64,000 bases of DNA from assembly GCF_004010195.1 (NCBI RefSeq), contig NC_057722.1, forward strand, positions 65,727,932-65,791,931, written 5' to 3'. Below the pieces are notes generated by a model, which saw nothing but the letters and a program-made list of their open reading frames with translations, had not been told where the DNA came from and searched no databases. Below are positions 1,134 to 56,791 of the stretch, piece after piece. Both the position numbers and the translations under genes were made by a program. The stretch comes from Chiloscyllium plagiosum (lineage: Eukaryota). Within the stretch, counting starts at the first letter, position 1. The number at the start of each line of letters is the position of its first letter.

Positions 1134-4100
1134 GTTAGTGGGTGCCATTAGACCTTTCATTTTGTTTAGTAAAATGGAAATCGTCTGCCCTCATGCTGCT
1201 TCACATTCTGAATTAATTTGCGAATTTAAGACTTTTTAAAAAATCGTTAACTTTGTTGTTGTGGTCCATCTCAGAGTGCTTTATAACCAATCAGGTACGT
1301 TTGCAATTCAGTCAATGCTGTAAGATTGATAAAATTGCAATCAGTGCATGCACCGCAATCTGGCACAATCAGTCTTGTCGTCAAAAAAAATCTGTTTAGC
1401 ATTTTGGAATGTGGGATATTTATCGATGAAAGCATTGTGAAAGTTCTCCCGTTCTTTTTTGAAATGCGTCTATTGGATCTGAGAAGGAAGATTGGAGGTT
1501 CTCTTAACATTGTATTTGAAATTGGGCACAATCTTTGATTAACGTCAGCTCAGATTTTGTGCTCAATGTCTGCTTTGGAACATATGTCCAACAACTTCCA
1601 ATTTAGAGACAGTGGTGTTACTACTGAATTATAGCTAATCATAACTTTGTAATGGTTACCTGTTATCGTTGTTTTCTGTGTTTTTTAAAATCTTGTTTCT
1701 TTCCCTTCTGCAGCTTTCAATTCAGACCTTTCCGTTGGGCACTGGCGATGATTTTTGCAATCGAGGAAATAAATAACGATACAGCTCTACTTCCCGGTGT
1801 CACACTGGGATACCGCTTGTACGATTCTTGTAAGTTGACGCAATTATCGCTAAAAGCAGCTATGGCGTTTCTGAACAAACCCGAGGCAAACGAACCTTCT
1901 GTTAAGTGCAAAAACTCCTCCACTGTTTCTGCGATTGTTGCTGATTCTGGATCCACGAGGTCTTTAGCAATTGCACCTTCCATCGGTACCTTCAGAATCC
2001 CTATGGTAAGATCTGGTGTTGAAGAACTCGGTTATGCAGTGTGAATAAACTTGGGTCAATTGTATATGATATGATGCTCTCTGTGTCATTTAATCCATCT
2101 AATACGCAATTTAGAACATTCGTTGTCAATCTAAGAGAGACCAAAATCCTCAATTACATCGCATTTAGAATGTTCATTTGGGATGAGACGGTTCAGTACA
2201 ATTATTGTAGATTGTTTTTTTTTGGCTCGGCAAAGCCAGGGCTTTATAACGAGGCTGTTATTCTTCTTCTAAGGTACTGCTTCGAAAGTGTCATTTCAGA
2301 AATCTGATGATGAAGAAAACTGAACTATGAGAAAGAAAATGTTCAAAAATCGTTACAAAAATGGCAATTTTAGTTCATTTTTATTCTTTCTGTGTTGGCA
2401 AAATCAATACTTGTTTTCAGTCCCAAGTTATCCTTGAACTGAATGTCTTCCTAGATCATCTGTGAGCTGGTTTAGAGGGAATCAGTCTGATTGATTCTGG
2501 CTCTAACTTGCAGCATCCACAGTTCTTTCGGTTTTTATTTGAGGGAATTATATATGGTACCAAACCAGAAATTGCTGGAAGATCTCAGCAGATATGGTAG
2601 AATCTGTGGAGAAAAATCAGCGTTAAGGTTTCACGTCTATTGACCTTTCTTCAGAACATTAGATAGTATCACATGTAGGGTCGATATCAGTGAACAAGAA
2701 GGCATTGTTTTACTACAATCATGTCTTGATGGTCAGCGTTACTGCAGCTACCTTTATATTCAAAGACCATTCCTTGTATTTAATCGCCACTGGTTGCCAT
2801 GGTGACGGGCTGATGACACATGTACACTGGACCTTTACACTTTGTCCGTATGAAGAGATCCTAAATAATTAAACTAACTACTTTATCAGAGTTTTGCTTT
2901 TTTTTTAATGAAACTGTCTAATGATGCTATGGCATCCCATGCTCATGATGAGATGGCATTTGGTCCACAGGTCAGGATGCGAACACTGCACCACAAGAGA
3001 CCGACAGCACTTTTCTTTCGTGCATCTGTCAATATTTTGAACCATGTTGACTTAATTTTCCACTGATCAATCAGCCATTACGAATCTTCCTTCAGGGTAA
3101 ATTGCTCGCTTTTCAAAACTTAATGTGCTGCCACTTTGTCCGTCTCCTGCTTTAACGGAGATCTTAACTCACTTACTGGAAACAACTTATTGCAGAAATG
3201 AACCCCGTGGTCAAGGATTTTTATTTAATCACGTCCTATCGAATTTGAAGTGCAATTTAAAACAAAAGCAGGTAATGTTCAAGATACTGGCTGGTCAAGC
3301 ACATCTGTGAAGAGAGAAACCATAGCTTCAAAAATGAGGCCATGTTTTATTGAATTCAGCACTGCGATGCTCGACTACATATGACAACGTTTCGTCCAGT
3401 ACGACCAGAAAAATACTGTGCAAGAGGCAAAAGCTGACAAAAAAACTTACCCAAAATACTACAGTATTCCTTGAATTTTTGAAATTAACTATTTATAGAA
3501 TTGAAAGAGAAGCTACATAGTAAATGAGTGTAATGTCTACAAAGCCTACCCAGCAGTAAACTACACGATAAATAGACTGCAACGCAAACATTGTTAGCAG
3601 ATGAAATAATTCTAAATTAAACTAAATGTTTCGGTATCGGCGGATGTCTGTAATCAAGCCTGAGAGACAATGCGCTTAATTTTGCTGCCAGAAGCTGGAT
3701 GAAATTCTTCAATGTTCTACCTCGCATTCTTGATTTTTTTTTAAAAGGATAATGTTAAAAATGTTGCAAAAGATATAAGGGTTTGGTTGAAGAGTAAATT
3801 TCGGCAATGGTGTAAGGCAGGTCATGTAGAATTAGTTACATATCTGACACCTTGCTTTTCTGTTCACTCTATTAACTTCAGTGTGAAGGGACAAAAGACG
3901 AGATCAACAGTTGACTCTCGATGCATTATTAGACACAGCTAGACTTCTCCCCAACGAACCTGCAGAGACAGTGGGGAAGAGAATGTTTGAAGAAGTTCTT
4001 CAAGTTAAATTGTGGATTGGCGTGTGTGTGTTTGTAGCAAGGGCAAGGCGAATTATGAATGATCAGTGCTCGGAATGAATCTTGGGAGTGTTTTGAAATT

Positions 4101-7100
4101 ATTAAATAAGTAGTTTATTCTGCGTTTAAGCAGGGCTACTCTTGTTAGCAGGACGTGAGATGGCATATTTGCTCATCTCAACCGATATCTATGTGTTGAT
4201 ATCATGAACAACCACAAACTATAATTGAAACACAAATGTTTTTGCTTTATTTGTGACAGGTTAGTTACTTTGCAACCTGTGCGTGCCTGAGCAATAGAAA
4301 GGAATATCCATCATTTTTTCGAACAATACCAAGTGATTACTATCAGGCTAAAGCATTAGCTCAGCTGGTGAAACATTTTGGATGGACCTGGATCGGGACA
4401 GTTAAGAGTGACGATGACTATGGAAACTTTGGAATGCTAGCATTTGAAGAGGCAGTTCAACAGTTAGGCGTTTGTATAGCCTTTTCCGCGTCATTTCATA
4501 TAACACATGCTCAAGAGAAGTTAATGAAAACCATCGACACCATAAAAACCTCTTCTACAAAAGTTGTCGTTGCCTTTGTGGGAGAATCAAACATGCGTAC
4601 TCTACTAAAAGAAATGATTAGACAAAATGTCAGCGGCATACAATGGATTGGAACTGAATCATGGGTTTCCTCTTTGCTTCTTCCTCCGGAGGAAAGTAAA
4701 AAGATTGCTACCGGGACAATTGGAATTGCAATTCGTAAATTCGGTATACCAGGGTTGAGGGAGTTCCTAATGAAAGTTCATCCAACCTCGTATCCAGAGA
4801 ACCTCTTGGTAAAAAAGTTTTGGGAAAGTTGTTTCGGCTGCACTTTAAGTGGTGGAAACAAAACATATTCTCGAAAAACTGAATCAGATATTAAGGAATG
4901 CACAGGAAGAGAAAATTTACAGAATGTCCAAAATGATTTTACTGATGTGTGGCAGTACAGAGTGACATACAATGTGTACAAAGCAACTTATGCGATAGCT
5001 CATGCACTTCACAATATGGTGTCATGTAAAACTGGGGAAGGACCTTTCTCCGATGGGAGTTGTGCAAACATTTCAAACTTTCAACCATGGCAGGTGAGGA
5101 GCATTTAACGTAGTATGATGACTGCATTTATATATATATCCAAAGTGGCCGAATGCACGGTTGAATATTTTCAATTAATGTAAACGATTTCCCATTTTGT
5201 TTTTATTTAAAGTTGCTATATTACATGAGAACAGTGAATTTCATAACCAAGATTGGCGAAAAGGTTTATTTTGACGAAAATGGAGACCCTGTCGCAACAT
5301 ATGACATTGTAAACTGGCAACCAAATGCCCTCGATGACATTGACATTGTAAATGTTGGGCACTATGATGGATCAGCTAGTTCTGGAAAAGAATTTTCGAT
5401 AACAGAAGGGGTAATTGTTTGGAGTGGCGGTCAGAAGTCGGTAAGATCTGTGCAGAACAATCCTTTTTTTAAAAAAAAATTGTCAGCTTTTTAATATCAA
5501 TTTCCATTCATGGAAATTGAAAGTGAACAGATGGTTGTTGTATCCCTACCCGCTACTGAACATTTCCACATATTAAATAAAATTGCAACTTGTCAAGCAT
5601 TTTAATCAGAAAGAACCTGTTCAATAATTTGCAAGTCGCTTTGTTTGATCAATTAAGAATGTAAGACCAGAGACATTTTATTTGCATCCACTTCCACAGC
5701 AGAACATTATTTCTCGTAACTGATGCAATTAAAATTGACAGAAATGTGAGAATGCAGCTGAAGAACAAATTATAAATTTAACTATAATCTTAAAAGACAC
5801 TGCATGAACAAATGAATGTATGAACAGCGAATTAAGATCTAAACATTTTGTGAAGTTTTTGCACGGTTTGAATTTTTTTAAAAAAATGGGAGCAATGGAT
5901 CTTTTATTTAGACGTCACATGGTTCTTGTTCATCTCGATCTCAAACACATTTGTGCCATACAAATGCCAAGCAATGGCTATCTCCAACAAGATAGGATGT
6001 AATCATCTCCCCATGATATTCAATAGCATCAACATCACTGAATCCTACACTAGCAACATCCCAGGTGATATCTTTGATCAGAAACTGAACTGGACTAATC
6101 ATATAAGATCAGATGCTGTAGATCCACAAATGTTCACTTTCCCCACTACAGATGATCGGCAACAGCAGCTACAAGATACATGGCAGTGATTCAACAATGC
6201 TCATTAGGCAGTAACTTTCAAGCCCATGCCCACTTCCAGCTCGAAGAATACTGGCAACTAATGCATGGGGATGCTCCCACCTTCGAGTTCCCCTGTCAGC
6301 CACTCACCATTCCTGACTTGGAAACATGTGTCAGTTCTTCCTTTATGTCAATTTGGCCAATCTACAGCAAATAGATTTCACTAGTTCAGGTAGGCAGGTC
6401 AGAGGCAACTAGGGATGGGCAATAAGTGCTGGGCTGGCCAGCAAGGATCACATCACGTGCATAAATTAAGAAAAAAACATTTTTACTTCTGAATTTGCTT
6501 TTCATTTTAGCCATAAAATGGTATTACTACAAATTACATCCAATTTTATTTAGTTGCTTCCCTATATCCTTTTTCAATAATAAATGAAGTAACTCCAAAG
6601 GCACATCATCAATATTATTATGAGAATTTGAATTTAACAAAAATATGCTGGTTCTGCAACTTCACAACTATTCCAATCACTTTACAGTGGCTTTAAACTT
6701 GGGCATGATGATGTCACAAACTGCGATATTATTTCAAAAAAAGACAGTCCTAACAAAGGAAACAGAAGCTGGTTTTGTGCTGTACACCAGACATAATATT
6801 GTACATTTGCCATATGGACTTACTAATATGTCTCTTCCCTTGTATTCACATTATTAATGAGGTTCCTAAAGCTTTTTGCTCTGAAAGCTGCCAGCATGGA
6901 ACAAGGAAAGTAGGAAGAAAAGGGCAACCCATTTGCTGTTTTGATTGCGTACAATGTGCACAAGGTGAAATTAGTAACATGACTGGTAAGAAAACAACAT
7001 TGCAAAGTGCATTTCTGCTTAAGCTGGATTTCTGCGTTGCTCAGGCGTTAAGATTACGTGTATAATGACAAAGTCTTGTGTTTTGTTTTAGATTCCATTT

Positions 7101-7999
7101 CCTGCATAAAATGTCCATTGGAATTCAAATCTAATGAAAGGCGGGATGAGTGCATTCCAAGGGAAATCGAGTTTCTTTCCTTTTCTGAGACAATGGGAAT
7201 CATTCTGGTGACACTGGCGCTGTTTGGAGCCTGCACCACTGTTGGTGTGTTCGCAATATTCTACATCTACCGACACACTCCGATTGTGAAAGCTAATAAT
7301 TCTGAGTTAAGCTTCCTTCTTCTTTTTGCCCTGACACTTTGTTTTCTGTGTTCAATTACATTCATTGGGGAACCTTCAGTTTGGTCTTGTATGCTCTGCC
7401 ACGCAGCGTTTGGTATTAGTTTTGTTCTTTGTATTTCTTGTGTATTGAGTAAAACAATTGTTGTGGTGATGGCGTTCAAAGCAACATTTCCCAGCAATAA
7501 TATGATGAAGTGGTTTGGACCAAGACAACAACGGCTGATGGTTTACATCCTCACACTGGTACAATGTGCAATATGTACTACCTGGTTAATTGTATTTCCA
7601 CCTTATCCTTTGAAAAACACTAGTCACTCAAATGAAATAATTGTGTTTGAGTGTAATGTAGGATCTTTGTTAGCCTTCTACAGTGTACTCGGTTATATTG
7701 GATTTCTGTCCTGTGTGTGCTTTGTGGTGGCGTTTCTCGCTCGAAAACTTCCAGATAACTTCAATGAAGCTAAACACATAACGTTTAGCATGCTTATCTT
7801 TTGCACAGTTTGGATAACTTTCATTCCAGCGTACATAAGTTCGCCAGGGAAATATGCTGTGGCGGTTGAAGTATTTGCTATTTTGGCCTCCAGCTTTGGT
7901 CTGGTTATTTGCATTTTTGCTCCAAAATGCTATATTGTTCTTCTGAAGAAAGAAAACAATACAAAGAGGAACATGATGGGCTTCCAAAAAAAGCTTTGA
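919..7999 (+). CDS. V2R/OlfC-family class C GPCR, gene 1; join(919..1133,1714..2005,4260..5093,5213..5440,6862..6985,7092..7999), 2601 nt, 866 aa
   Basis: Signal peptide, then [47 protein letters not shown], a Cys-rich exon (CSESC..CCFDC..C) and a 7TM exon ([27 protein letters not shown]). All introns are GT-AG with phases 2,0,0,0,1 and the joined frame has no stop. Confidence 0.95.
1714..2005 (+). CDS. V2R gene 1 exon 2
   Basis: Acceptor cttctgcag|; [20 protein letters not shown]; donor |GTAAGA. Confidence 0.93.
2560..2657 (-). mobile_element. Penelope-associated short element arm with decayed hammerhead motif
   Basis: Reverse complement of 2622-2657 reads GTT-CTGAAGA-A-AGGTC-AATA-GACGT-GAAA-CCTT-AAC. 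Confidence 0.6.
4260..5093 (+). CDS. V2R gene 1 exon 3
   Basis: Acceptor gacag|; VSYFATC..FQPWQ; donor |GTGAGG; 834 nt. Confidence 0.94.
5213..5440 (+). CDS. V2R gene 1 exon 4
   Basis: Acceptor ttaaag|; [19 protein letters not shown]; donor |GTAAGA; 228 nt. Confidence 0.92.
5940..6478 (+). mobile_element. Old LINE 3' remnant (CR1/L2 group)
   Basis: [15 protein letters not shown] resembles the LINE RT C-terminal LG..D..L.W..HI motif; A-rich end; related pieces near 14150-14720, 48000-48330 and 63540-63980. Confidence 0.6.
6862..6985 (+). CDS. V2R gene 1 exon 5 (Cys-rich domain)
   Basis: [18 protein letters not shown]; 124 nt as in both paralogs; acceptor is GAG. Confidence 0.9.
7092..7999 (+). 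CDS. V2R gene 1 exon 6 (7TM domain)
   Basis: Acceptor ttttag|; seven hydrophobic segments; TGA stop. Confidence 0.95.
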
Positions 8000-8334: not shown

Positions 8335-8411
8335 AATAAATTCTGAAACTTGGCCTATTCAAGTGTCCAAAATGGGTGGCTCACATCGCTTTCGAAAAAC
8401 ACATTAATAAA
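8335..8411 (+). terminator. Candidate polyadenylation signals, gene 1
   Basis: AATAAA at 8335-8340 and 8406-8411, 340-410 nt after the stop. Confidence 0.45.
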
Positions 8412-9208: not shown

Positions 9209-11567
9209 GACAATAGACAATAGACAATAAACAATAGGTGCAAGAGTAGGCCATTCTGCCCTTCGAGCCTGCACCACCATTCAATATGATCATGGCTGAT
9301 CATCCTTAATCAGTATCCTGTTCCTGCCTTATCTCCATAACCCTTGATTCCACTATCCTTGAGAGCTCGATCCAACTCTTTCTTAAATGAATCCAGAGAC
9401 TGGGCCTCCACTGCCCTCTGGGGCAGAGGATTCCACACAGCCACCACTCTCTGGGTGAAGAAGTTTCTCCTCATCTCTGTCTAAATGGTCTACCCTGTAT
9501 TTTTAAGCTGTGTCCTCCGGTTTGGCACTCGCCCATCAACGGAAACATGTTTCCTACCTCGAGAGTGTCCAATCCTTTAATAATCTTATATGTCTCAATC
9601 AGATCCCCTCTCAGTCTTCTAAATTCAAAGGTATACAAGCCCAGTCACTCCAGTCTTTCAGCGTAAGGTAGTCCCGCCATTCCAGGAATTGACCTCGTGA
9701 ACCTATGCTGCACTCCCTCAATAGCCAGAATGTCTTTCTTCAAATTTGGAGACCAAAACTGCACACAATACTCCAGGTGTGGTCTCACCAGGGCCCTAAA
9801 CAGCTGCAGAAGAACCTCTTTGCTTCTATACTCAATCCCTCTTGTTATGAAGGCCAGCATGCTATTAGTCTTCTTCACTACCTGCTGTACCTTCATTGAC
9901 TGGTGTACAAGAACACCCAGATCTCTTTGTACTGCCCCTTTACCTAAATTAGTTCCATTTAAGTAGTAATCTGCCTTCCTGTTCTTGCCACCAAAGTGGA
10001 TAACCATACATTTATCCACATTAAACTGCATCTGCCATGCATCTGACCACTCACCTAACCTGTCCAGGTCACCCTGTAATCTCCTAACATCCTCATCACA
10101 TTTCACCCTGCCACCCAGCTTAGTATCATCAGCAAATTTGCTAATATTATTACTAATTCCATCTTCTATATCACTATATATATATTGTAAAATGCTGCGG
10201 TCCCAGCACTGATCCCTGCAGTGCCCCACTGGTCACTGCCTGCCATTCCAAAATTCCAGATTAGTACTTTGCCCCCAATACCATGCGCCCTAATTTTGCT
10301 CACTAACCACCTATGTGGGACTTTATCAAAAGCTTTCTGAAAGTCCAGGTACACTACATCTACTGGATCTCCCTCTTCCGTCTTCAGAGTTACATCCTCA
10401 AAAAATTCAAGAAGATTAGTCAAGCATGATTTCCCCTTCATAAATCCATGCTTACTCTGACCTATCCTGTTACTACTATCCAGATATGTCTTAATTTCAT
10501 CCTTTATAATAGACTCCAGCATCTTTTCCAGCACTGAAGTCAGACTAACTGGTCTATAATTTCCTGCTTTCTCTCTCTCACCTTTCTTAAAAAGTGGTAC
10601 AACATTAGGCACTCTCCAATCCGCAGGAACTGATCCCGAATCTATCGAACTCTGGAAAATAATCACCAACACATCCACGATTTCTCGAGCCACCTCCTTC
10701 AGTACCCTAGGATGTAGACCATCAGGCCCCGGGGACTTATCAACCTTCAGACCTAACAGTCTCTCCAACACCAATTCCTGGCAAATATAAATTCCCTTAT
10801 GTTCAGGTCCTTCAGCCACTGTTACCTTAGGGAGATTGCTTGTGTCTTCCCCAGTGAACACAGATCTGAAGTACCAATTCAATTATTCTGCCATTTCTTT
10901 GTTCCCCATAATATATTCCCCTGTTTCTGTCTTCAAGGGCCCAATTTTAGTCTTAACCAATTTTTAGCCTTTCACATATCTAAAAAAGCTTTTACTATCC
11001 TCCTTTATATTTTGGGCCAGTTTACCTTTGTACCTCACTTTTTCTCTGCGTATTTCCTTCTTAGTAATCCTCTGTTGTTCTTTAAAAGCTTCCCAGTCCT
11101 CTGTTTTCTCATTCATCTTTGCTATGTTATACTTTTTCTCTTTTAACTTTATATGTTTCTTAATTTCCCCCGTCAGCCACGGCCACCCATGCCTCCTCCT
11201 AGGATCTTTCTTCCTTTTTGGAATGAACTGATCCTGCATCTTCTGCATTATACACAGAAATATCTGCCATTGTTCCTCCACTGTCATCCCTGCTAAGGTA
11301 TTTCACCATTGAACTTTGGCCAGCTCCTCCCTCATAGCTCCATAGTTCCCTTTATTCAACAGAAATATTGTCACTTCCGATTGTACCCTCTCCCTCTCAA
11401 ATTGAAGATTGAAGCTTATTGTATTATGGTCACTACTTCCCAATGGCTCCTTCAATTCGAGGTCCCTGATCCATTCTGGTTCGTTGCACAATACCAGATC
11501 CAGAATTGCCTTCTCCCTGGTAGGCTCCAGCACCAGCTGTTCTAAGAATCCATATCGCAGGCACTCC
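9209..11567 (-). mobile_element. CR1 LINE, 5'-truncated, frameshifted ORF2
   Basis: PTREKAILDLVL..SDH (endonuclease), [46 protein letters not shown]; (TATTGTC)n 3' tail at 9209-9236. Confidence 0.95.
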
Positions 11568-13916: not shown

Positions 13917-15499
13917 GATACAGGGCAGCCTTAAACTACCCTTAAGATTGAAACCATGCAAAGTATGTCCATTGGCTAAAGTTATACTTAACACAAACTT
14001 TTTGAATTCAAAACACATTGTCACCAGCTCCTCAGAGCACTGATTTCAGTCCAACAATCTTCACCCACTTTAACATTGAAAATTCTTCATCAGAAGGTCA
14101 GACATGGAATGATGGCAGTTCCATTTCCAACTATTCAGATGATGGAGCCAACCCATATGCAGACAACCCATGGATCGTTTTCAGCCTTGGCAGGGCTAAG
14201 TGGAAATTAACATGCAAGTGTCAAATAATGACCATCTTCAACAAAACAGAACTCAATTATCACCTGTTACCCTTAATTTATGTTACTAATGCTAAATTCT
14301 CTACTTCCTACATCCTGCATGATACCTTTGGCCTGGAAAAGCCATAGAAATATTTTGCTTTCAGGCGCTGGATATTCTGAATAGAAGGACTCACTTCCTG
14401 CTTTCCCCAAAGCTTTTCACCAGCTGTGGGATACAATTCAGAGGGTGATGTGTGTGCAACTGCAACAACACCTCAAGAACATTAAGGACCAAAGCAGCTT
14501 ACTTGATCAAAATGTAAACCACATTAAACTGGAACTTCAATTTGAATGGTGGGGAGTAGCAGCAGTGTGCACCATTCATCAGGTGCTTTTGAGCAATTTG
14601 CAAAGGTGTCTCCTTCCACACCCAGGACTTCTACCATCTAGAAGAATAATGACAGCAGATTCTTTGTGAAAACCAGTGTGTGAAATCTTCCCTCTAAGCT
14701 TCAAACCATCTTAACAGAGAATGTTTTCCACAAACATTCAGCCTACCAAAACTGTATCAGCCCATTACAAGAGCAAAGTAGCTTCCCTGTTTCCGCCTAA
14801 CCACACATATCTTAGAGTGCTTATCTAATTTCTTTCAGAAGCCATGAATGTATTTGCCACCATCTCTATTAATGACTGCATTCCATATTCTAACCACTCA
14901 CTGAGTAAGGCATATGCTTTCCTAATGCATCATTCAGTACTTTGGAAATATATTGTTGCTCCTTTACTGTTACTTCACAAACTTAGAGGTTTGTCTGACA
15001 GTGCAGGCTATCTGTTGCTGTACCATTAGGAGCACAGTACTTTGGGAGGATGATTTACCACCGACATCTCAAGTATAATGTGCCATGGTGAAATAATGAT
15101 GACCTTGCTATTAATGCCCACATGCCAGAAATTATTAAAAAATATATTCAACCATTGCATTAATCATATTACTAAATTTCCAATTAATCATACAATAACA
15201 CAATGCAGAGGAAGGTTATTTGGATGAATGCACCCCATCAGTCTTTTAAAGCCAATTTCCGTGCTCCTTTTTGGTAATTGTGAAAGTTTTCTCCACTTTG
15301 AGTACTTATGGAATTCTGTTCTGAATTTTATTATTGACACGGTTTCCACTACCACTTCAAATGTTTTAGAGAACTTCATAAATCATGTAGGAATCTGAAA
15401 GTCCCACTTTAGAAATAAAACTGATTCAACATTGGAACAGACTTTAAGTTCACACCTTTAATGCATTGTCTGAGCTAAGAAAACACCTATTGTTAGATA

Positions 15500-15775
15500 A
15501 ACTGAAGCCACTTTGAGAATATAACTTCAAAGGTCTTTTCAAATTTACAAACTAGAGAGCCTAAACCAGCATATCCCATCCTAAAAGATGCAAGACTTAA
15601 TCTAAGTTTGTTTAATATATTGTTACAACTCCGTGACACTGTGACCCTTTTGCTATACATTCTGTGTCTTCTGGTCCTGTTCCACAATCACCGGATGAAG
15701 AGGCACCGCCTCAGAAACTAATGATTCCAGATAAATCTGTTGGACTATAACCTGGTGTTATGTGATTGTTAACTT
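15500..15775 (+). mobile_element. Penelope-like element terminal fragment with decayed hammerhead
   Basis: Inverted homolog of 16185-16450; cac-CGGATGA-agaggc-acc-gcctc-agaaact. Confidence 0.65.
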
Positions 15776-16152
15776 AATCTCATGGTGGTGGTGAACTATT
15801 TGCATCAAACACCTGTCTATTCTGTGCTGTGTTGAAGCTGTTGCAGAATTTTGATTCAGTAACAGCGTAAGAGGTCATTGCAATGTGTATTGTTATCATA
15901 TATCAGGACTCTTCATGAATCCTGGTCAGCGTACATTCAGATAATTAACTGGGAATGTTAAACTTAGAATAGACAGTTTTGCACTCCCTTCCAAAACCAT
16001 CTCGAAAGCACATCTCAATGTTGGATACGTGGGCCTGCTGTATGATACTTACCTGAATACTTATCCTGGTATTGCCCCATTTTCAGTCTAGGCCAATGAC
16101 TAACTGTGGATCCCGTCCCATTGCACCCTCATGACTCTTAAAAACCCCATTC

Positions 16153-19858: not shown

Positions 19859-20064
19859 ATGGTTTTGCTTTGGGCTTTGTTCACCCTGCTAACACCTGTA
19901 TGGGCAGGCTATCAGCCAGTCTGCAAACAGTGGGAGAAATTCGACTTACTCAGTTTATTCAAGGCTGGAGACATTGTTTTGGGCGGAATTTTTAGCCTGC
20001 ACTCCAACGTAGAATATCGGAAAGTATCATTTGCAAGGCAGCCCGAGGCAGTAGAATGTAAAAC
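19859..20064 (+). CDS. V2R gene 2 exon 1
   Basis: [23 protein letters not shown]; donor AC|GTTAGT. Confidence 0.92.
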
Positions 20065-39700: not shown

Positions 39701-42700
39701 GGCCTGCTTCCACACTGTAGGGAATCTAATCTAATGATTTTGTTGGTAATCTATTTCGCATCTGAACATCATAAAGTAAGTACTGCTGTCCCTGGGCTTA
39801 TGACTTGTGGATGGGCTGGACACAGCAAAGACCGGAACAATGGGTGATGGAGTGCAAGCCCATAAGGGAGAAAGCTCCTAATTTCACATTGATTAGGCCA
39901 TCAATGGAAAAGCATAGCAGTTCAGGCAGCACCCGAACTGCTGTGCTCTTCCAGCACCACTAATCCAAAATCTGGTTTCCAGCATCTGCAGTCATTGTTT
40001 TTATCCATCAATGGAAAAGCCCTAGATTACCAACTTTACACATCAAATTGCATAGAATTCCCACTCCTTCACAAGGGGCCATTTCATTCTTTGTGGATGG
40101 AAAACGCCCAAACAAAACCAAAATAACCAGTGATAAATAATTAAAACATTGCCATGACTTCGGTTGTCAGAATGGTAACTTTGACTAGAGGTGGCATGGT
40201 GGTTAAATGGTTTGCAGTGGTGCCTCATAGTGCCAGGGATTCAGATCCAACTTTGTGCGACTGTCCATGTGGAGGTTGCATGTTCTCCTCATGTGTGTAG
40301 GGGGTTTCCTTCCACGTCTAAAGATGTGCATGTCAAGTGAATTGGTCATGCTAAATTTCCCCTGTAGTGTCCAGGTGTTGGTGAGTTTGTCAAGGTAAAA
40401 ATGGCATGTGGGGTTACTGGGAGGATGGATCTGGATTGGATGCTCTTTGGAGGGTCGATTACTTTTTGATGGGCCGAATGGTCTCTTGCTGCAGTGTAGG
40501 GATTATGACTCTTATTTAGGGAAGTACTTATCTCTTGATCTCAGTTCCATTCAGAAGCAGGTTGTGATTTCCCTTGAATCAAATGCATTTTGTTATTGGT
40601 ATCTGCAAACGTAACCTTATCCATCATATTTAACAAAATTGTTGGTCATTCGTCTCAACTATCAATATTTAGGCTTCACCCAAATTTCTTTCCCCCTTGC
40701 TTCATCTGGTCGATACAAACACCTGCTAGCCTTATGTACTGATCTAATTTCCCACTAAATAAATCAATGCTTTTCCCCTCAGCTACCTCACCTTGTAACA
40801 TGTTCCACCCTATCAGTCATATCACGAATAAGGCTATCTATCTTAATATGGAGAGTTTATTGTTATTTTTATTCAAATCATTGCAGGTCAGCTATTTCTC
40901 TACCTGTGCGTGTCTAAGCAACAAACAAGAATTCCCTACGTTTTTCAGGACTGTGCCAAGCGATTTGTTTCAGGCCAAGGCTTTAGCTCAGTTTGTGGAA
41001 CATTTCGGTTGGACCTGGATCGGGACCATTGGAGGGGACAATGAGTACGGTCGGTATGGAATCCAAGCGTTCAGCGAGCTCGTCCAGCGAGCTGGAGTCT
41101 GTATCGCTTTCTCAGAAACGATTCTCAGAACATATTCCAAAGAAAGAATACTCAAGATTGTAGGCACCATAAAAATGTCGACTGCAAAGGTTATCTTGGC
41201 TTTTGCTTCCGAAGGTGACCTTTACCCGTTGCTGAAAGAAGTTGTCCGTCAAAATATCACTGGCATTCAGTGGGTAGCCAGTGAAGCATGGATTACAGCG
41301 GCACGACCTTCAACAAAGGGTAATTTCAAGTCTCTCGGGGGAACAATTGGATTTGCAAATCGCAAAATGGCAATCCCAAAGTTTAAAGACTTTCTTCTGA
41401 GTCTACGCCCTTCAATACATTCCACCAACGATTTTGTGAATGTTTTCTGGGAAACGATATTTGGTTGCACGTTTAACAGAAACAGCTCCGTCTTCCGCAC
41501 CAAGAAATGCACTGGACGTGAAAAATTACAAAAGGTGAAGAACTCTTTCTTTGATGTAACTCATTTGAGAGTTTCCTATAATGTCTACAAAGCAGTTTAT
41601 GCCATAGCTCATGCACTCCACAGTTTGCTATTTTGTGAAGATGAACTACTGGGAGCCTATCTTTGCGCTAATGTTTCCAATATCGAACCATGGCAGGTAA
41701 GAGGAATGAATGTTATATCAAACACTGATTTGGAGATGCCGGTGTTAGACTGGGCTGTACAAAGTTAAAAATCACACAATACCAGGTTATAGTCCAATAG
41801 GTTTAATTGGAAGCACTAGCTTTCTGAGCGCTGCTCCTCCACTACCACCTGATGAAGGAGCAGCGCTCGGAAAGCTAGTGCTTCCAATTAAACCTGTTAG
41901 ACTATATCCTGGTGTTGTGTGATTTTTAACTTTGTATCAAACACTGTAATGTAATGTCTATCTTAAATATGCAGATCCATAAACCGTACAAGTTGACTTG
42001 CATCGTTAGAGTGATGCATTGCAAATTATAATTAAAAAATATTTTATCTCAACGTTTACAAATAAATAAGTTCATTTGTCAATGTCTGGGCACTATAAAA
42101 GAAAATGGATCCAAACTATTACCATTCTATTCCGTTAACTTTGGAGAGCTGAAACATTAATATCTGGCTAGTGCTGCTTTAAATGATCTGGCAGCTCGGT
42201 GCTAGCATTTTGTTGACAACTCAGAGATTATGAAGATGTAAGAATTGACCCTAATTTTCTATGCAGTGTACGGGGATAGGAATGAGCTCTGTTCAAATCT
42301 AAATTTTGGCAAAATGCTATGGATCATAGAGTCCCTACAGTGTGGAAACAGGCCCTTTGGACCAACATGTCCACATCGACGCTTCGATGAGTAACCCAGC
42401 CCCTACCCTAGTACTCTACATTTACAACCTTACCTACACATCCCTGAACACTATGGACAATCTACCTAACCTGACATCTTTGGATTGTGGGAGGAAACTG
42501 GATCACCTGGAAGAAACCCACGCAGACATGGGGAGAATATCCAAATTTCGCACAGACAGTTGCCCGAAGATGGAATCGAACAAAGGTCTCTGGTGCTGTG
42601 AGGCCCTCATGATACACCAGACTCAAACCGATGATTCTGCTTCTCTCTCCATGGGTGCTGCCAGACCTGCTGAGTTTCTCCAGCATTCGCTCTATTTGTT

Positions 42701-45700
42701 TCTGCTGGGATTGCATCTCTTTCAATTTTTTTTTAATGAAAGCACACAGACATATCCACTAGTGAATAGTTGATTAATCTACTGAAGAGTGAGCAACAAT
42801 ATGGTAAACAGAAACCTGCTCAAGTTAAAGCTTTTGGTTACCAGAGAAAATATAAATGACCCCAGGTGGGCAGGGGTGAAGGGCAATAAGATTCCAGTTG
42901 AAAATTTGCACTTACAGTGGCTTTCATCACAGAAATCTAGTTTTGATTCTGTGTTCAGACACCTAGGCAGGGAGAAACAATGCCTAAATTTGTGAAAAAA
43001 AAATGTTTCTAAGCTCTGCAGTTCTTTCCCTAAGTCTGTTTGTTTTTCTACCTCCATTTGCACATTTAAGACATCCCTGTAAACCAGACTGTTTTGGTCA
43101 GAAATCTATTAACTCCTTACATAATTGTGTTAAATTTTGGATGTAAGCAAAGCCTTCAACGAGGTTCTACATGATATACTGGTTAGTAAAGTTAGATCAC
43201 ATGGGATCCAGGGACAGCTTGCCAACTGGACACAAAATTGGCTGATGGTAGGAGACAGAGGGTTGTGGTGGAGGGTTGTTCTTCAGATTGGAGGCCTGTG
43301 ACCAGTGGTGTTCCGCAAGGATTTGTTCGAGGTACACTTTTATTTGTCATTTATATATTGGATGAGAATATAGCAATCATGATTAGAACATAAAACATAG
43401 AAAAGTACAGCACGGAACAGGCCCTTTGGCCCACTATGTTGTGCCAAGGGTTAATCCTAATGTAAAGTAAAATAATTTAATCTATGCACCCCTCAACTTA
43501 CTGCTACCCATTAGTAGGTTTGTGGATGACTCCAAAATTGGTTGTACATAGAACATAGAACAGTAGAACATAGCACAGGGCCTTCGGCCCACAATGTTGT
43601 GCCAAGCATTTATCTTAATCTAAGATCAACCTAACCTACATACCCCTTAATTTACTGCCGTTCATATGCTTGTCCAGCAGTTGCTTAAATGTCCCTAATG
43701 TCTCTGACTCTACGATCACTGCTGGAAGTGCATTCCATGTGCCCACCACTCTCTGCGTAAAGAACCTACCTCTGATACCTCCCATATACCTTCCTATCAA
43801 CTTAAAATTATGGCACAGTAGAAAGTGAAGAAGGTTTTTTGAGAGTACAACAGGATCTTGAACAGTTGGGCCGCTGGGCTGACAAGTGGCCGATGAAGTT
43901 TAATTTCGATAATGTGAGGTTTTGTGTTTTGATAAAACAGAAAAACCGAGGGATTCTCGTCCATTGTTCCTTGAAACTGGCATCACAGGTTGACACTGTG
44001 GTGAAAAAGGGTGCCTTTATTAGTCAAAGCATTGAATATAGGAGTTGGGACATCATGTTGAGGCTGTACAGGACATTGGTGAGACCACGTTTGGAGTTCT
44101 GCCTACAGTTTTGGTTGCCAAATTGGCAAGGATGCAGAAAAGATTTACGACAAAGTTAATGGGACTAGACAATTTGAGTTACACTGAAAGGCTGGATAGG
44201 CTAGGACTTTTATCCCTGGAGCATAGAAGGTTAAAGGGTGAACTTGGAGAGGGTTTTAAAATCAGGACAGAAATAGATAAGGTGAATAGTAAAAATCCTT
44301 TTCCTAGAGTAGGGGAGTTCAAAACCAGAGGGCATACATTTAAGGTGAGAGGGAAAGCTTCAAAAGGGATCTTAAAAGGCACAACCATTTGCACAAAGAA
44401 TGTTTCGTATGTGGAATGAACTGCCAGCTAAAGTGGTAGAGGCAGGTACAGAAACAACATTTAAAAGACTTTTGGAGATGTACATGAATAGGAAAGGTTT
44501 AGAGGCATGTGGGCCAAATACAGGCAAATGGGACTAGTTTAGTTTGGGAAACCTGGTTGGCACGGATGAGTTGGACCAATGGATATGTTTCCATGCTGTG
44601 TGACTCTATGACGGTATGAATTATTCTGTGAAGCATTTTGGGAAAGGTGCTATGTACATGCAAATTATTGTTGCCACTGTTATAGGCACTTTTTAAAGCT
44701 ACAAGTGGATTATGTTAGTTCAGTAGACTAATGAACACATTACCATGTCCATGAATTATTTTGAGTAACTAAACATTCCGTTCTAATTACTCCTCTAAGC
44801 TATTTCAGCATTTAAAAGAAGTAAGATTTACCAACCGCTTTGACGAACACATATATTTTGATTCAAATGGAGATCCCACTGCATCATATGATATTATAAA
44901 CTGGCAGATGAAGCAGAATGGTTTGGTTGAACATGTAACAGTTGGCTATTTTGATGCATCTGCAGCAACTGGAAATAAGTTTATGATAAATGAAGATAGT
45001 ATTATATGGCATGGGAACAAAACAAAGGTAAGATCAATGCTTCTTTGTTCAATGAATTGTTTTGTTATTAGTGGAAGGAGCTAGATCATTCACAGATGAT
45101 ATCATAAAACTATTTCTTCATATCAAAGGTAATGGAAATCAAAATAATTTACCCAAACAGGAAACCATTTGAGCCATTGTATTTGTGTTGTTTCTTTGAA
45201 AAGTTGCCCATTTAGTTCCCCTCCTCTGTTCATCTCTTCCACAGTATAATGACCTTCTTTCAAGTATGTGTCTAGCTCCTTTTTGAAAACTGTTGCTGAA
45301 TTTGCTTCCAAAGTCTAATATCTGAAATTGGCCATCCACAAGATGCTGTGGGCCATCAACAGCAGCAGCAGAATTGTGTTGATTCAAATCAATAACCTTA
45401 AAACAGTGCATGTTCCTCATGGTATCATTATGAACAAACTAAGGAATTAACCCTGATCCATTTAGTAGTGCAGGATAGCAAGCCAGGAATAGCAATGCTT
45501 GGCTATGAACCATGACAGGTGTCATATCTCAGTGGGAGAACATTTTGGTGATCGTGATCATAACTCCATGACCTTTACTATACTCATGGAGAGGCATAGA
45601 AGCAGATGGTATGGAAAAGTAAAGAATTGGGGGAGGGGGAATTACAATCCTATTGGGCAGGAACTGGGGCACTTAAATTGGGAACATATGTTCTCAGGAA

Positions 45701-48700
45701 AATGCACAAGAGAAATGTGGAGGTTATTCAGGAAGAACCTGCTGATAGTGTTGGACAAGTTTGTCCCACTGAGGTAAGAAAAGGATGGTAAGTTGAAAGA
45801 ACCTTGGGTGACAAGGGATGTGGAACATCTAGTCAAGAGGAAGAAGGAAGCTTATTTAAGGTTGAGGAGACAAGGATCAGAAAGGGCTTTACAGGGTTAC
45901 AAAGTGGCCAGGAAGGAACTGAAGAATGGACATAGGAGAGCTAGAAGGGGGCATGATAAAGCTTTAGTGGGTAGATTTAAGGAAAGCCCTAAGGTGTTCT
46001 ACACTTATGTGAGGAACAAGAAGATAGCCAGAGAGTATGGCCAGTCAGGGATAGTGGAGGGAACTTGCGCCTGGAGTCAGAAGAAGTAGGGCAGCTTCTT
46101 AATGAATACTCTGCTTCAGTATTCACAATTGAGAGGGACATTGACATTTCTGAGGACAGCATGAAACAGACTGATATACTAGAACAGATTGGTGTTAGGA
46201 AGGAGGATGCACTAAAAGTTGTGAAAAAGATAGGATAGATAAATCCGCTGGACCGGATGGGATATATCCTAGGTTTGGCAATGATGTTTGTATCCTTACT
46301 CTCCACTTGAGTAGTACCAGATGATTGGAGGTTGGCCAATGTTATTCCCTTGTTCAAGAAAGGAAGTAGGGATAATCCTGGGAATTACAGACCAGTCAGT
46401 CTTACATCAGTGGTAGGCAAAGTATTGGAGAGGATTCTGAGAGACAGGATTTATGTTTACTTGGAAAACCATAGTTTAATTCGAGATAGTCAGCATAGCT
46501 TTGTGAGGGGTTGGTCATGCCTCACAAATCTTATTGAATTCTTTGAGGATGTGACAAGGGTTGAGCAGTAGATGTGGTGTACATGGATATTAGCAAGGCA
46601 TTTGATGAGGTTCCCATGGTAGGCTCATTCAGAAAGTAAAGAGGCAAGGGATACAGGGAAACCTGTCTGTCTGGACACAGAATTGGCTGGCCCATGGAAG
46701 ACAGAGGGTTGTGGTAGATGAAAAGTATTCAGCCTAGAGTTCAGTGACCAGTGATGTTCCTCAGGGATCAGTTCTGGGACATCTGCTCTTTGTGATTTTT
46801 ATAAATGACTTGGATGAGGAAGTGGAAGGGTGGGTTAGTAAGTTTTCCAATGATGCAAAAGTTGGTGGAGTTGTGGATGGTGTAGAGGGCTGTTATAGGT
46901 TGCAATGAGACATTGATAGGGTGCAGAACTGGGCTGATAGGTGGCAGGTAGATTTCAACCTGGAAAAGTATGAAGTCATCCATTTTGGAAGGTCAAATTT
47001 AATTCAGAACACAGGCTTAAAGGCAGGATTCTTGGCAGTGTGGAGGAATAGAGGGATCCCTCAAAGCTGCCACCTAGGATTGTTAAGAAGGCGTACGTTG
47101 TGTTGGCTTTCATTAGCAGGGTAATCGAGTTTAAGAGCTGCGAAGTTATGCTGCAGCTCTATAGAATCCTGATCAGACCACACTTGGAATATTGTGTTCA
47201 GTTCTGGTTGCCTCTTTCTAGGAAAGATGTGGAAGCTTTAGAGAGGGTGCAGAGGAGATTTACCAGGTTGCTGCCTGGATTGAAGGGCATGTCATATGAA
47301 GAAAGGTTGAGGGAGCGAGGGATTTTCTCATTGGAGTGAAGAAAGATGAGAGGTGACTTGATTGAGATGTACAAGATGTTGAGGGGCATAAATTGATGGA
47401 TAGAAAGAGACTTTTTTCTCATGGCAGAAATGTCTATTAAGAGGGGACATAATTTTGAGATAGCTTGAGGAAGGTTTAGGGGAGAAGTCAGAGGTAGGTT
47501 CTTTACTCACAGAGTGGTGGATGTGTTGAATGCACTGCCAGCAGTGATAGTAGAGTCAGATACATTAGGGACATTCAAGTGACTGTTGGATAGGCACATG
47601 GAAGTTAGTACAATGTAGGGTATGTAGATTAGTCTGATCTTAGAATAGGATAAAAGGCTGGCAGAACATTGAGGGCTGAAGGGCCTGTACTATTCTATGT
47701 TCTTTATTCTAAATGAGATGCCAACCTTGTGAAACTGCAACACACAATTACTTTTGTGCCAAACAGCAGAAACAGTGAGTGATTGATAGGTCTTAGAAAT
47801 TCCCAAACCAATGGATCAGATCATTATTTGGCAATCCTGTCACATTGAAATAACAAAATGAGAAACCTCTACAAATGTTTGCAGTCAAAAATGATGGGGG
47901 TGTCTGACACATTAGTTGAAACTTTTGTAGTCATCTTCAGCCAGAAGTGCCAAATGGTTCATTCATCTCTGAGTCTTTCTGATTATGACAGTTGCCTGTC
48001 TTCAGAAAATTCGATTCACTCAGTATTAAATCAAGAAACAACTGAGGGCACTGAATATCTGTAGGCAACATTCTGATAGTGATAATGAAGACCCGTTCAC
48101 AAAGCAGCACAGTTGATAAGCACCCAATCTACCACCTTAAACAGATATACACTCCACTAGGGGTACAGACTGTGAACCATCACAAAAGTATACTACAGCA
48201 TGACCTAATGCTTTCTATAACAGCAACTTCGACATCTGTGACCTCTGCCATCTACAAGGACACTATAATAGATCCAGTCATACAAAAGCTTCTATCCAAG
48301 TCATGTGCCATCCTGACTTTGAAATAAAGAGATTAGGTCGCCATAGTCCCATTCCCTCATTAGAGAGACAATTGGTGGTGAGGGTCACCATGCCTCAGGA
48401 AAGGGACAAGGTTGAAAAGGTGGGAACTTCATGGGTGAGGACCTCAGCTGGTACGAGAATTGAGTCCATGCTGTTGGTGTCATCACAAACTGAGCTACCC
48501 AACCTTTAGTTTGAAATATATTAATTTTTCTCATTGTCACACTGTCAAAGTCCTGGAATACCCTTCCAACAGTTCTGTATATTTTCCTGCACGGTATGCA
48601 CAGTAGAAAATCAAGAGAAGTGCTCATTGTGCCTTTCTCAAGGTAAAGGTGAAAAATAAATACTTTGATGTTTATGGGAGCTTCCAAAAACCTTTTTCAT

Positions 48701-50823
48701 CATGGGCATCTGGAAATGCCACACCACAAAAATAAGTGTCATAAAAAGCCATCTCACTGCTGCCTGGGTCTGTGAACATGTCAATCCCTGCTTCAGAAAA
48801 AGGCTAAAATGACATTGATTGTAATCCAAGGCTATCTCTATATGTTACCCACAATCTATAAGTGCACTTCCTTTACAATGTGCTACCTTCATAATTTCAT
48901 GCCCTACCATTCAGTGAGCTTTCCATTGTGTTGGTACTCACCAATTACTTTAATGCAAGGTCTTGTGTTGATCGTGGTGCAAAGCCGCACATCCAATGCA
49001 TCTGGAAGTTAAAGAAGATTCCTTATTTATATTGTATAATATAAATACTACATCACCTTCCCCTTCCAATTACTTTTTATTTTAAAAATATTAATTTTAT
49101 TTTTGCTTTTGTATGAAGGTCCCACAGTCTGTATGCAGTGAAAGCTGCCCACCTGGTACAAGAAAAACTGTACAGCACAGACAACACACATGCTGCTTTG
49201 ACTGCATACCATGTTCTGAAGGTGAAATCACCAATGCAACAGGTCAGCAAATGTCATTTTACCATTTGATGAAAAGATATTTCATTTTTTAAAGAAGTGC
49301 CGCATTTTTTACAAGAGAAATGCAGGATAACTATATTAATGTGAAGGGATTAGATAAGGGGAAACTGTTTCCACTGTTAAGAGGGTTAGGACACAGATTA
49401 AGGCAATGGCTAAAGAAGTAAACAGAGGAGAGATTGAGAGAATGATCATTTTTACACAGGGAACAGTTTTGATCTGGAATGGACTGCCTGAATAGGCAGA
49501 TGGATGCAGATTCAACTTTCAAAAGATAGTTGGACGTATGTAATAGTAAAGAAAAATGACGAGAGAGCGGAGAGTGCAATTTACAAAGAGCCGGCACAGG
49601 GATAATGGGCTGAGCAGCCTACTTCTGTACTGCAAGGTTTTTTGATTCCAAGAATAACTTAAACTTAAACCTAACTTAAACAAGTTCGTTTAACTTTAAA
49701 CAACTTAAACAAGTCCAAAGATGTGCAGGTCAGGTGAATTGGCTGTTCTAAAATTACCCATAGTGTTAGGTGCATTAGTTAGAGGGGAATGATAATGGGT
49801 GGATTACTCTTTGGTGGGTTGGTGTGGACTTGTTGGGCCAAAGGACCTGTTTCCACGCTGTAGGGAATCTAATCTAATCAAGTATCTATCACTGATTACA
49901 TTCTCCTAGATTCACTAGAATGCACGAAATGCCCCCTGGAATACTGGTCAAGCAATGACAGCCAAAGATGTATACTGAAAGAAATTGAGTTTCTCTCCTT
50001 TGAAGATACCATGGGAATTATCCTGATGATGGTGGCATTATTTGGAGCATGCATCACTTTGATTATTGCTTCTGCATTTCTTTATTATAAAGATACCCCC
50101 ATCGTCAAAGCTAACAACTCTGAATTAAGCTTTCTGTTGCTATTTTCATTGGCACTTTGTTTTCTGTGCTCACTTACATTTATTGGTGAGCCCTCAGTTT
50201 GGTCTTGTGTACTGCGGCACACAGTGTTTGGCATTACGTTTGTCCTTTGCATGTCCTGCATACTAGGGAAAACTATTGTCGTGCTCATGGCATTTAAGGC
50301 AACTGTTCCTCAAATGAATATGATGAAATGGTTTGGGCCTGTGCAACAAAGGGCCATGGTGTGTGCATGCACTTTCATCCAAATTCTCATATGCATCATC
50401 TGGCTTGTTGTTGCTCCCCCTTTCCCAACAAAATATACAAAATATCATAATTCAAAGGTTATTTTGGAATGTAATGTTGGGTCTCCAATAGCCTTCTACT
50501 GTGTATTGGGATACATTGGTATTCTAGCATGTGTGTGTTTTATGCTAGCTTTTTTGGCAAGAAAGCTGCCAGGCAATTTCAATGAAGCAAAGTTCATAAC
50601 TTTTAGTATGCTCATCTTCTGTGCAGTGTGGTTAACATTCATTCCAGCCTATGTAAGCTCTCCTGGCAAATATACAGTTGCAGTTGAAATTTTTGCCATT
50701 TTGTCATCTAGCTTTGGTTTACTTTTCTGCATTTTTGGTCCAAAATGCTACATTATCTTATTCAAACCAGAGAAAAATACAAAACAGAATCTGATGAGGA
50801 AAATTCCTTCAAAAAGGCTTTAA
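36550..50823 (+). CDS. V2R/OlfC-family class C GPCR, gene 3; join(36550..36788,37287..37578,40887..41696,44800..45027,49119..49242,49910..50823), 2607 nt, 868 aa (alternative ATG at 36580)
   Basis: Same six-exon structure and phases; joined frame is open; introns enlarged by transposons. Confidence 0.94.
37287..37578 (+). CDS. V2R gene 3 exon 2
   Basis: Acceptor ctgcag|; [20 protein letters not shown]; donor |GTAAGG; 292 nt. Confidence 0.93.
38868..38960 (-). mobile_element. Short element with decayed hammerhead motif (third family)
   Basis: Reverse complement of 38905-38942 reads CA-CTGAAGA-T-ATTACC-TAGTAT-GGTGC-CAAAACATC-TG. Confidence 0.5.
39295..39467 (+). repeat. G-rich purine low-complexity tract
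   Basis: More than ten GGG-or-longer runs with short spacers. Confidence 0.8.
39510..39690. repeat. Decayed palindromic Penelope-associated element
   Basis: ggaaaaacttagcaggtttggcagcatctgtgaagagaaatca pairs with tgatttctctgcacaaatgttggcagacctgctgagcttttcc. Confidence 0.75.
39914..40004. mobile_element. Collapsed palindromic element flanked by a 16-bp direct repeat
   Basis: CCATCAATGGAAAAGC at 39898-39913 and 40005-40020; insert is similar to the 56572 family. Confidence 0.8.
40188..40512 (+). mobile_element. HE1-like SINE, full length, decayed
   Basis: tRNA-like head, central domain, gggccgaatgg tail. Confidence 0.8.
40887..41696 (+). CDS. V2R gene 3 exon 3
   Basis: Acceptor ttgcag|; VSYFSTC..IEPWQ; donor |GTAAGA; 810 nt. 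Confidence 0.94.
41728..41934. mobile_element. Palindromic Penelope-derived element with 12-bp TSD
   Basis: TSD TATCAAACACTG at 41716-41727 and 41935-41946; about 80-bp near-perfect inverted arms 41758-41838 and 41856-41936. Confidence 0.9.
41846..41880 (+). ncRNA. Minimal type-I hammerhead ribozyme motif
   Basis: CAC-CUGAUGA-A-GGAGC-AGC-GCUCG-GAA-AGCU-A/GUG: helix I CAC/GUG, helix II GAGC/GCUC, palindromic helix III AGCU, NUH = CUA. Confidence 0.7.
42324..42605 (-). mobile_element. HE1-like SINE
   Basis: Colinear with 57835-58150; followed by a Penelope-associated arm at about 42620-42725. Confidence 0.85.
43130..44610 (+). mobile_element. CR1 LINE fragment carrying two nested antisense CR1 3' pieces (43387-43509 and about 43548-43812)
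   Basis: VTSGVPQG codons, [32 protein letters not shown]; the inserts start with (AGAACAT)n tails. Confidence 0.88.
44800..45027 (+). CDS. V2R gene 3 exon 4 (absent from the ORF track)
   Basis: Read by eye as [45 protein letters not shown]; 228 nt; donor |GTAAGA. Confidence 0.9.
45500..47710 (+). mobile_element. CR1 LINE, 5'-truncated, disrupted (gene 3 intron 4)
   Basis: [46 protein letters not shown]; tattctatgttc tail. Confidence 0.95.
49119..49242 (+). CDS. V2R gene 3 exon 5 (Cys-rich domain; absent from the ORF track)
   Basis: [41 protein letters not shown]; 124 nt; donor |GTCAGC. Confidence 0.92.
49712..49879 (+). mobile_element. HE1-like SINE, 5'-truncated
   Basis: gtccaaagatgtgcaggtcagg..cctgtttccac..aatctaatctaatc. 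Confidence 0.85.
49910..50823 (+). CDS. V2R gene 3 exon 6 (7TM domain)
   Basis: Acceptor ctcctag|; 7TM segments; TAA stop. Confidence 0.95.
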
Positions 50824-56571: not shown

Positions 56572-56791
56572 TGATACAGGAGAAAGTGAGGACTGCAGAT
56601 GCTGGAGATTACAGTTGAGAGTGTGGTGCTGGAAAAGCACAGCAAGTTAGGCAGCATCTAGGAGCATGTGAATCGATGTTTCAGGCATAAGCCCTTTATC
56701 CTGATGAAGGGCTTATGCCTGAAACATCGATTCTCCTGCTCCTCGGATGCTGCCTGACCTACTGTGCTTTTCCAGCACCACGGTCTTGACT
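56572..56791. mobile_element. Palindromic short element with central hammerhead motif (second family)
   Basis: Inverted arms 56623-56696 and 56707-56781; possible TSD cagattcac/caaattcac. Confidence 0.85.
56698..56731 (+). ncRNA. Minimal type-I hammerhead ribozyme motif, slightly decayed
   Basis: AUC-CUGAUGA-A-GGGC-UUAU-GCCU-GAA-ACAU-C/GAU: helix I AUC/GAU, helix II GGGC/GCCU; helix III ACAU is one change from palindromic ACGU. Confidence 0.65.

Follow-up and report, generated by a model that had tools for sequence, protein, structure and literature searches.

Do the short repeats scattered over a 64,000-nucleotide stretch of the genome of Chiloscyllium plagiosum (NC_057722.1, positions 65,727,932 to 65,791,931 of the forward strand; hereafter the window) carry hammerhead ribozyme motifs in more than appearance, and, if so, which mobile elements left them there and what remains of their function? 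An earlier note on this DNA had distinguished four dissimilar families of such repeats (A to D) and read them as a radiation of ribozyme-bearing Penelope-type elements. Our analysis makes it very probable that the repeats carry decayed minimal type I hammerheads, with family A ending the remnant of a Penelope-like element and with B/D and C likely being 5'-truncated end-pieces of two other lineages.

Hammerhead-like cores were found at the sites named earlier. The C3 positions of the nine scored copies are 15692, 20760, 21325, 41849 and 56701 on the forward and 2654, 16257, 18939 and 38940 on the reverse strand, and all nine have the one extra base after CUGANGA that had been described for them. 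The earlier count of about ten traces proved too low, as there are about 14 loci when stubs of D and B type whose core is unreadable are counted. Three sites in the window (41849, 56701, 2654) satisfy a strict descriptor that demands an exact core, three base pairs in helix I and four or more in helix II, where one mismatch is allowed; in each of 200 local dinucleotide shuffles the count is zero, so that by this check on shuffled background the motif exceeds chance. Relaxed post hoc for family C, the descriptor gives four sites against a shuffle mean of 0.065 and a maximum of 1 (200 shuffles), and for none of five descriptors did any of the 200 shuffles reach the observed count; these descriptors were composed after the sites were known, and one was relaxed to take in family C. 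A descriptor without helix I, in turn, does not rise above background (three sites observed, zero to four in 12 shuffles); one with two core mismatches gives four against zero to two in shuffles, and looser versions were counted as background. The window contains 49 CUGANGA words, and the Rfam covariance models returned no hammerhead family among eight weak matches at E values up to 5. We conclude that the motif is real, above chance and decayed.

Every core base is kept in three of the nine scored copies (41849, 56701, 2654), and in none of the nine does an exact core coincide with three pairs in helix I, complete pairing of helix II and a palindrome in helix III: at 41849 helix II is closed by a G.G pair, and 56701 and 2654 have ACAU and ACCU, respectively, in place of the palindrome. 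The scoring set consists of nine window copies and leaves aside a family D copy at 18.8 kb, since its helix II lacks the 5' strand. The claim that most copies are mutationally dead is thus borne out and was, if anything, an understatement, since every scored copy has some defect. The prediction is that none of the window copies cuts. In transcripts across the two best inserts, the fold-backs at 41728 and 56600, the long hairpin is predicted to be more stable than the hammerhead by 50 and 44 kcal/mol, and therefore even these inserts would not be expected to cut. The closing pair G10.1-C11.1 is G-C in the majority forms of A, C and D and G.U in the B copy. Helix III is palindromic and lacks a loop, being AGCU in three of six A copies and in L003, a metagenome contig related to family A, and ACGU at 18.8 kb, and the B majority has the G at 16.2.

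The majority form of family A, taken over seven window rows and L003, is fully intact and reads CAC, CUGAUGA, A, GGAGC/GCUCC, GAAA, GC, UA, GUG. Its helix I strand CAC is native, because three other copies carry CAC upstream. G12 is present in three of the seven window rows, and two rows have A there, as expected of CpG decay. The helix II that had been assigned to the whole family, GGAGC/GCUCC, holds as the majority and fails at 15692, where it is GAGGC/GCCUC, which amounts to two double changes. The insert at 41728-41931 has its hammerhead at 41846-41880 on the forward strand, with the exact core and the G.G closing pair, and is flanked by a 15-nt target duplication with one mismatch (41713-41727 and 41932-41946). 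Family A has alternative 3' ends about 30 nt apart, a short one at 41931 and 15775 and a long one at 41728, 16160 and 20875, and the tail that follows the hammerhead (41884-41931, 20795-20872, 18828-18900) is conserved with positions 1015-1092 of L003. The tail and its optional extension could form a 9-bp stem in which 37 of 40 cells are paired, a value equalled by 126 of 500 shuffles, and its covariation is not significant. Judged from its sequence, the tail is a candidate start element for reverse transcription. Three longer copies of different subfamilies, two of them tail to tail, lie at 15398-19330 between receptor genes 1 and 2 of the host locus.

The remnant of an open reading frame (ORF), an inverted block, the tail, the target duplication and the relative L003 together show that family A is of Penelope-type origin. 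In tblastn the remnant at 17435-16843 matches P0021 (E 3e-31) and P0017 (E 5e-27), and the longer P0017 and P0025 match as well. Such relatives carry the Pfam domain RVT_1, and P0032 and P0040 carry GIY-YIG; their alignment displays reverse transcriptase (RT), Cys-rich linker and endonuclease motifs, with a CX4CX2C linker that is degenerate in the window remnant. About the last 590 nt of the ORF survive in the window and the RT core is lost. The hammerhead at 16257 lies about 580 nt downstream of the end of the remnant on the same strand, and the tail comes next. L003 shares 51% amino acid identity with the window element and has, about 280 nt after the ORF stop, an intact hammerhead (CAC/GUG, GGC/GCC, AGCU) followed by the family A tail. 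In P0031, a predicted Scyliorhinus isoform, the GIY-YIG end is likewise followed by the frame of the family A tail, with a weak tail match (E 0.003). The named relatives of a retroelement protein that is itself related to the remnant are mostly from sharks (Mustelus, Scyliorhinus, Heptranchias, Chiloscyllium, Hemiscyllium).

Many predicted shark proteins that bear host-gene names (P0010, P0018, P0019, P0022, P0031, P0034-P0037, P0042, P0043) carry the endonuclease end of the element and are either exonised remnants or annotation errors. Of the four matches of an exhaustive protein search with the window ORF, three are unrelated repeats. Matches in the viral contigs L001, L002 and L004 were discarded, being chance occurrences of 21-base and 19-base motifs inside phage ORFs, and the viral contigs searched hold no relative of the ORF.

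For families B, C and D, majority forms were obtained by aligning three public contig sets and one RNA run to 38780-40010. The B insert has its hammerhead at 56698-56731 on the forward strand, with an exact core, helix II paired at four of four positions and ACAU for helix III in both arms. Its inverted arm (56660-56700) mirrors 56703-56743, and AUC (56698-56700), the strand assigned to helix I, mirrors the GAU inside CUGAUGA; lying within the mirror arm, it is not countable as evidence of covariation, and the AUC/GAU helix I previously put forward as an independent pairing is an artefact. Both arms (56660-56743) share U at 11.1 and A at 16.2 against the expected family form, departures carried by the source copy or due to later conversion between the arms. 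The B majority was read at the related fragment 39935, not at the B insert: in public contigs the loose end before this fragment begins GUC-GAU, which places G at 16.2 and gives ACGU. A 9-nt candidate for a target duplication at the B insert is within chance, and a run search listed no RNA run with this insert.

The family D majority was read from loose ends past 39575 (1037, 942 and 949 contigs in the three sets; consensus agreement 0.57-0.60). On the other strand their consensus has helix I GUU, CUGAAGA, an extra A, GGGUC/GACCC and G12, and the majorities at 39602-39603 supply the helix I partner AAC. At the 18.8 kb site GAAACGUU is intact on the reverse strand, as stated before. There (18711-18942, reverse strand) a family D stub directly abuts a family A tail at its end, which brings an ACGU- and an AGCU-type hammerhead to within about 110 nt of one another. 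At 62205-62260 the 5' half of a D hammerhead on the reverse strand directly adjoins a 3' half on the forward strand, and 18830 and 62212 share a variant 3' strand of helix II that perhaps marks a further subfamily.

The family C stub is flanked by a 14-nt direct repeat with one mismatch (38853-38866 and 38956-38969), that is, a target duplication. Of the earlier description the core-like site stands, with corrections in detail: helix I is a 3-bp UCA/UGA instead of CA/UG, helix II pairs at four of six positions, and A occupies the position of G12. The majority base at 38932 accounts for 74-90% of depth in the three contig sets and for 77 of 81 RNA reads, that at 38916 for 97-99% of contig depth and 87 of 92 RNA reads, and together they turn helix II into a 6-bp GUUACC/GGUGAC paired at all six positions. 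Starts or ends of RNA reads do not pile up over 38780-40010 in the one single-cell poly(A) run, of which about 2% was sampled and which cannot test cleavage. A drop in depth upstream of the stub was considered as the 5' boundary of family C and dropped; it is uninformative because the window copy is itself a stub and reads cannot align further. At 38844-38990 the duplication and its flank resemble the reverse complement of the 3' hammerhead half of the element itself, a likeness that is either chance or a sign of insertion into a self-like site.

But are these really four families? The B tail matches each of five D tails better than all 1000 shuffles, whereas the tails of A and C show no match to B/D or to one another, with 45 and 82 of 1000 shuffles as the lowest values. 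B and D thus share a 3' tail, and the four dissimilar families reduce to three lineages, A, B/D and C. Within B/D the fourth pair of helix II is C-G in B and U-A in D. A covariance model built on family A, R1, lists D at E 0.61 and B at E 3.6 and does not have C among its 36 listed rows, so that none of the three is recovered above background. Across lineages, as far as sequence goes, the core alone is common. Covariation between families, which had been held to be the strongest evidence for the motif, therefore carries less than was thought: one of its four examples is the mirror artefact and the helices are not alignable between families. Consensi without intact cores, the refuting outcome named earlier, were not seen: the core is intact in A (by alignment) and in D (in public contigs), and in C, among the rows listed, helix II is restored.

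The table gives the coordinates of these copies and of the host genes. The latter form a tandem array with long, open exons and are receptor genes that we take to be V2R/OlfC-like. The surrounding DNA is rich in short repeats and contains remnants of CR1-type RT, including RVT_1 at 10169-10882 (Pfam), and a dispersed SINE-like family (28159-28361, 42327-42604, 49712-49881, 57833-58140, 59849-60144, 61237-61433). Family A copies 20760, 21325 and 41849 lie in sense orientation within introns of the receptor genes.

Table. Hammerhead-bearing repeats, their parent element and host genes in the window (positions counted from the first base of the window)
Feature	Position	Strand	Details
Copy of a family A subfamily, preceded by terminal-repeat sequence	15398-15775	+	Hammerhead 15689-15723, 3 core mismatches
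Family A copy in Penelope-like 3' terminal repeat	16160-16842	-	Hammerhead 16260-16226, 2 core mismatches; long tail end
Family A subfamily copy	18857-19226	-	Hammerhead 18942-18908, 1 core mismatch; helix II 3/5
Family A stub	20754-20875	+	Tail reaches the long end; G12 altered; lies in intron 2 of receptor gene 2, sense orientation
Family A fragment	21311-21356	+	4 core mismatches
Family A fold-back insert	41728-41931		84-bp arms, tail on left arm only
Penelope-like ORF 3' end, decayed	16843-17435	-	Covers the GIY-YIG region and the Cys-motif linker between RT and endonuclease; interrupted by a stop codon and frameshifts
Inverted copy of ORF end	17429-17677	+	Head to head with remnant; 69% identical to 16931-16675
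Family B fold-back insert	56572-56791		Outer limits approximate
B-type tail fragment	39935-40003	+	No core
Family D stub	2572-2657	-	Hammerhead 2657-2622 followed by tail; exact core, helix II 4/5, ACCU for helix III
Family D stub	18711-18835	-	Joined to end of 18939 tail; helix II lacks its 5' strand
Family D fold-back pair of tails	25010-25200		Core not readable
Family D fold-back insert	39492-39690		Arms 74% complementary; degraded core
Family D stub	42620-42702	+	Core not readable
Family D piece	62205-62325		Inversion junction inside hammerhead
Family C stub	38867-38955	-	Hammerhead 38943-38904
Three six-exon class C G protein-coupled receptor genes	~871-7999, 19922-26555, 36580-50823	+	Pfam ANF_receptor and 7tm_3; exon map

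How could such copies have arisen? By analogy with Poseidon of Anolis (Frangieh et al. 2024, PMC11167929), the element protein would nick AT-rich DNA, and reverse transcription would then start a little downstream of the hammerhead, at either of two sites, a scheme that the two 3' ends of family A would fit. Copying would mostly halt early and leave stubs of 90-200 nt, often with an inverted second copy, as in related elements (PMC11167929, PMC3846280, PMC8557442). Fold-back inserts are indeed present in A, B and D, and target duplications at A (15 nt) and C (14 nt). What lies upstream of the cut site is still present in the copies, and their templates were therefore uncut there. Since a hammerhead of this type lacks helix III, a second copy or the help of a protein would be needed for cutting, and active source elements may use the motif as a protein-assisted or dimeric cutter, with helix III formed when two copies pair through their ACGU or AGCU. 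Selection would in that case act on the source RNAs only, so that the source helices could drift by compensatory change while the genomic copies decay neutrally, CpG sites first.

Several observations weigh against our interpretation. The window ORF on its own has no Pfam match to GIY-YIG and two direct protein searches with it found nothing, for which reason its identification was reached via the relative P0002 and through proteins related to that one. Neptune-type queries match the window only at 16.7-17.5 kb and brought up no ORF for B, C or D. Double changes occur at three of eight pairs in family A plus L003, a result equalled by 33 of 500 shuffles and thus not significant. In family C, G12 is A in the window copy, and the majority rows listed exclude both G12 and 16.2. 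Finally, ACAU in both B arms suggests a source copy with a non-palindromic helix III. The combined pattern of B/D core and tail, for its part, was sought in metagenome contigs and in prokaryote genomes and found in neither. The proposed Penelope-type radiation is confirmed in origin for A, while the Penelope link of B, C and D is one that we infer from architecture, namely fold-backs, duplication and type of motif, and the multiplicity of families is not unusual.

Could the motifs be chance matches within repeats? The 49 CUGANGA words, the background level of the loose descriptors, the absence of an Rfam hammerhead and the chance matches in phage ORFs would all fit, yet no shuffle out of 200 attains the observed count and the majority bases improve pairing where this was predicted; we regard the idea as extremely improbable overall, and a chance origin is refuted for A and D. 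No more credible is a role for the host, by which sense intronic copies were kept to cut or regulate receptor pre-mRNA. The three sense copies, one of them (41849) with a complete core, might invite this thought, but the cores at 20760 and 21325 are broken, 41849 has its G.G closing pair and is locked in the 84-bp hairpin, and the changes resemble neutral decay. The suggestion that B/D and C are independent non-autonomous mini-elements, SINE- or retrozyme-like and copied as whole units of 90-130 nt, is somewhat less far-fetched though still quite unlikely. All B, C and D copies in the window are short, many contigs span the unit 38868-38959, and hammerhead-bearing non-autonomous derivatives have been published, one of them chondrichthyan (PMC4209133; bioRxiv 10.64898/2026.07.22.740005). 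Then again, the shared contig span is limited by the window copy itself, family A has short stubs beside long remnants, a fold-back whose tail sits on one side is a typical form of Penelope insertion (PMC3846280, PMC8557442), and tandem arrays, the defining trait of non-LTR (long terminal repeat) retrozymes, do not occur at these sites.

A more serious competitor, which we consider possible but not the likelier reading, is that the hammerhead fold is kept for protein binding or translation start and that cutting is dispensable for spread. Catalytic mutants of the Anolis element insert undiminished in vitro and no RNA-seq ends are reported at its cut site (PMC11167929); in the window, copies reach upstream beyond the cut site, so that their templates were uncut there, and the B arms share a non-palindromic helix III. 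Against this stand the conservation of all catalytic positions read in three lineages and L003 and the fact that the Anolis motif does cut in the presence of protein. This proposal concerns the function of the motif, not its origin, and is compatible with a descent of the copies from Penelope-like elements.

Elements of this kind have already been described in many animals. Minimal hammerheads in the pseudo-LTRs of metazoan Penelope-like elements were reported by Cervera and de la Pena 2014 (PMC4209133), and that work already contains all of the features named here, including the base between 9 and 10.1, G10.1-C11.1, the palindromic 15.2-16.2 and families with compensatory changes within one genome. 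Its supplement has six hammerhead families in Latimeria and eight in Xenopus; several covarying families per genome are thus the published norm, which is why a radiation would not be unusual here. Like those hammerheads, the window motif has a type I core without a helix III loop, occurs mostly as solo copies and matches the consensus CUGANGAH G..C GAAAN palind NUH. CAC..AGCUA..GUG of family A matches the Marsupenaeus japonicus row, and by eye B resembles the Acropora Neptune row (GGGC/GCUC, ACGUC) and C the Clonorchis and Petromyzon rows with their 6-bp helix II; in A, B and D, by way of difference, helix II is only 4-5 bp long. No shark is found among the Figure S3 rows examined or by a term search of supplement file 2, and a search of the literature found no example of a shark hammerhead of Penelope type, Penelope itself being present in the whale shark (PMC8455134).

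Further parallels are the Neptune/Nematis-type elements (Craig et al. 2021, PMC8557442; Arkhipova et al. 2013, PMC3846280), which have in common with the window element a C-terminal GIY-YIG, a Cys-rich linker, 5' truncation, an adjacent inverted copy, an optional tail of 30-40 nt, target duplications and a hammerhead near the 3' end. Unlike full elements, the window element retains the last 590 nt of its ORF only, and no ORF was found in the window for B, C and D. Since the Cys-rich linker is common to Neptune and Nematis (PMC8557442), it does not fix the clade. With Poseidon of Anolis (PMC11167929) the element shares two alternative 3' ends after the hammerhead, which define the tail, but it differs in clade and in sequence. 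Animal non-LTR retrozymes, including a chondrichthyan one (bioRxiv 10.64898/2026.07.22.740005), likewise have a type I hammerhead derived from Penelope terminal repeats. The window copies, in contrast, are solo or head to head and not in tandem arrays, a tandem-repeat search of the window having covered a hammerhead in none of its five rows; they are therefore not retrozymes.

What, then, do these remnants mean? The known link between retroelements and ribozymes is extended to sharks, with three or four natural variants from a single genome. For the role of the hammerhead in Penelope transposition, co-resident families with unlike helices offer material for work on cross-family dimers and on protein-assisted cleavage, and the tail stem common to A and L003 is a concrete candidate for a Neptune-type RT start signal. 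A bolder proposal, which we think unlikely as a whole, holds jointly that helices I and III are a family-specific pairing code and that the family A tail stem is a Neptune-type RT start element. If helices I and III form between two copies, families with CAC/GUG and AGCU, with GUU/AAC and ACGU and with UCA/UGA and ACGU could not cut one another. Were this so, the Penelope lineages of one genome may have diverged so that each could process its own RNAs amid a crowd of dead copies.

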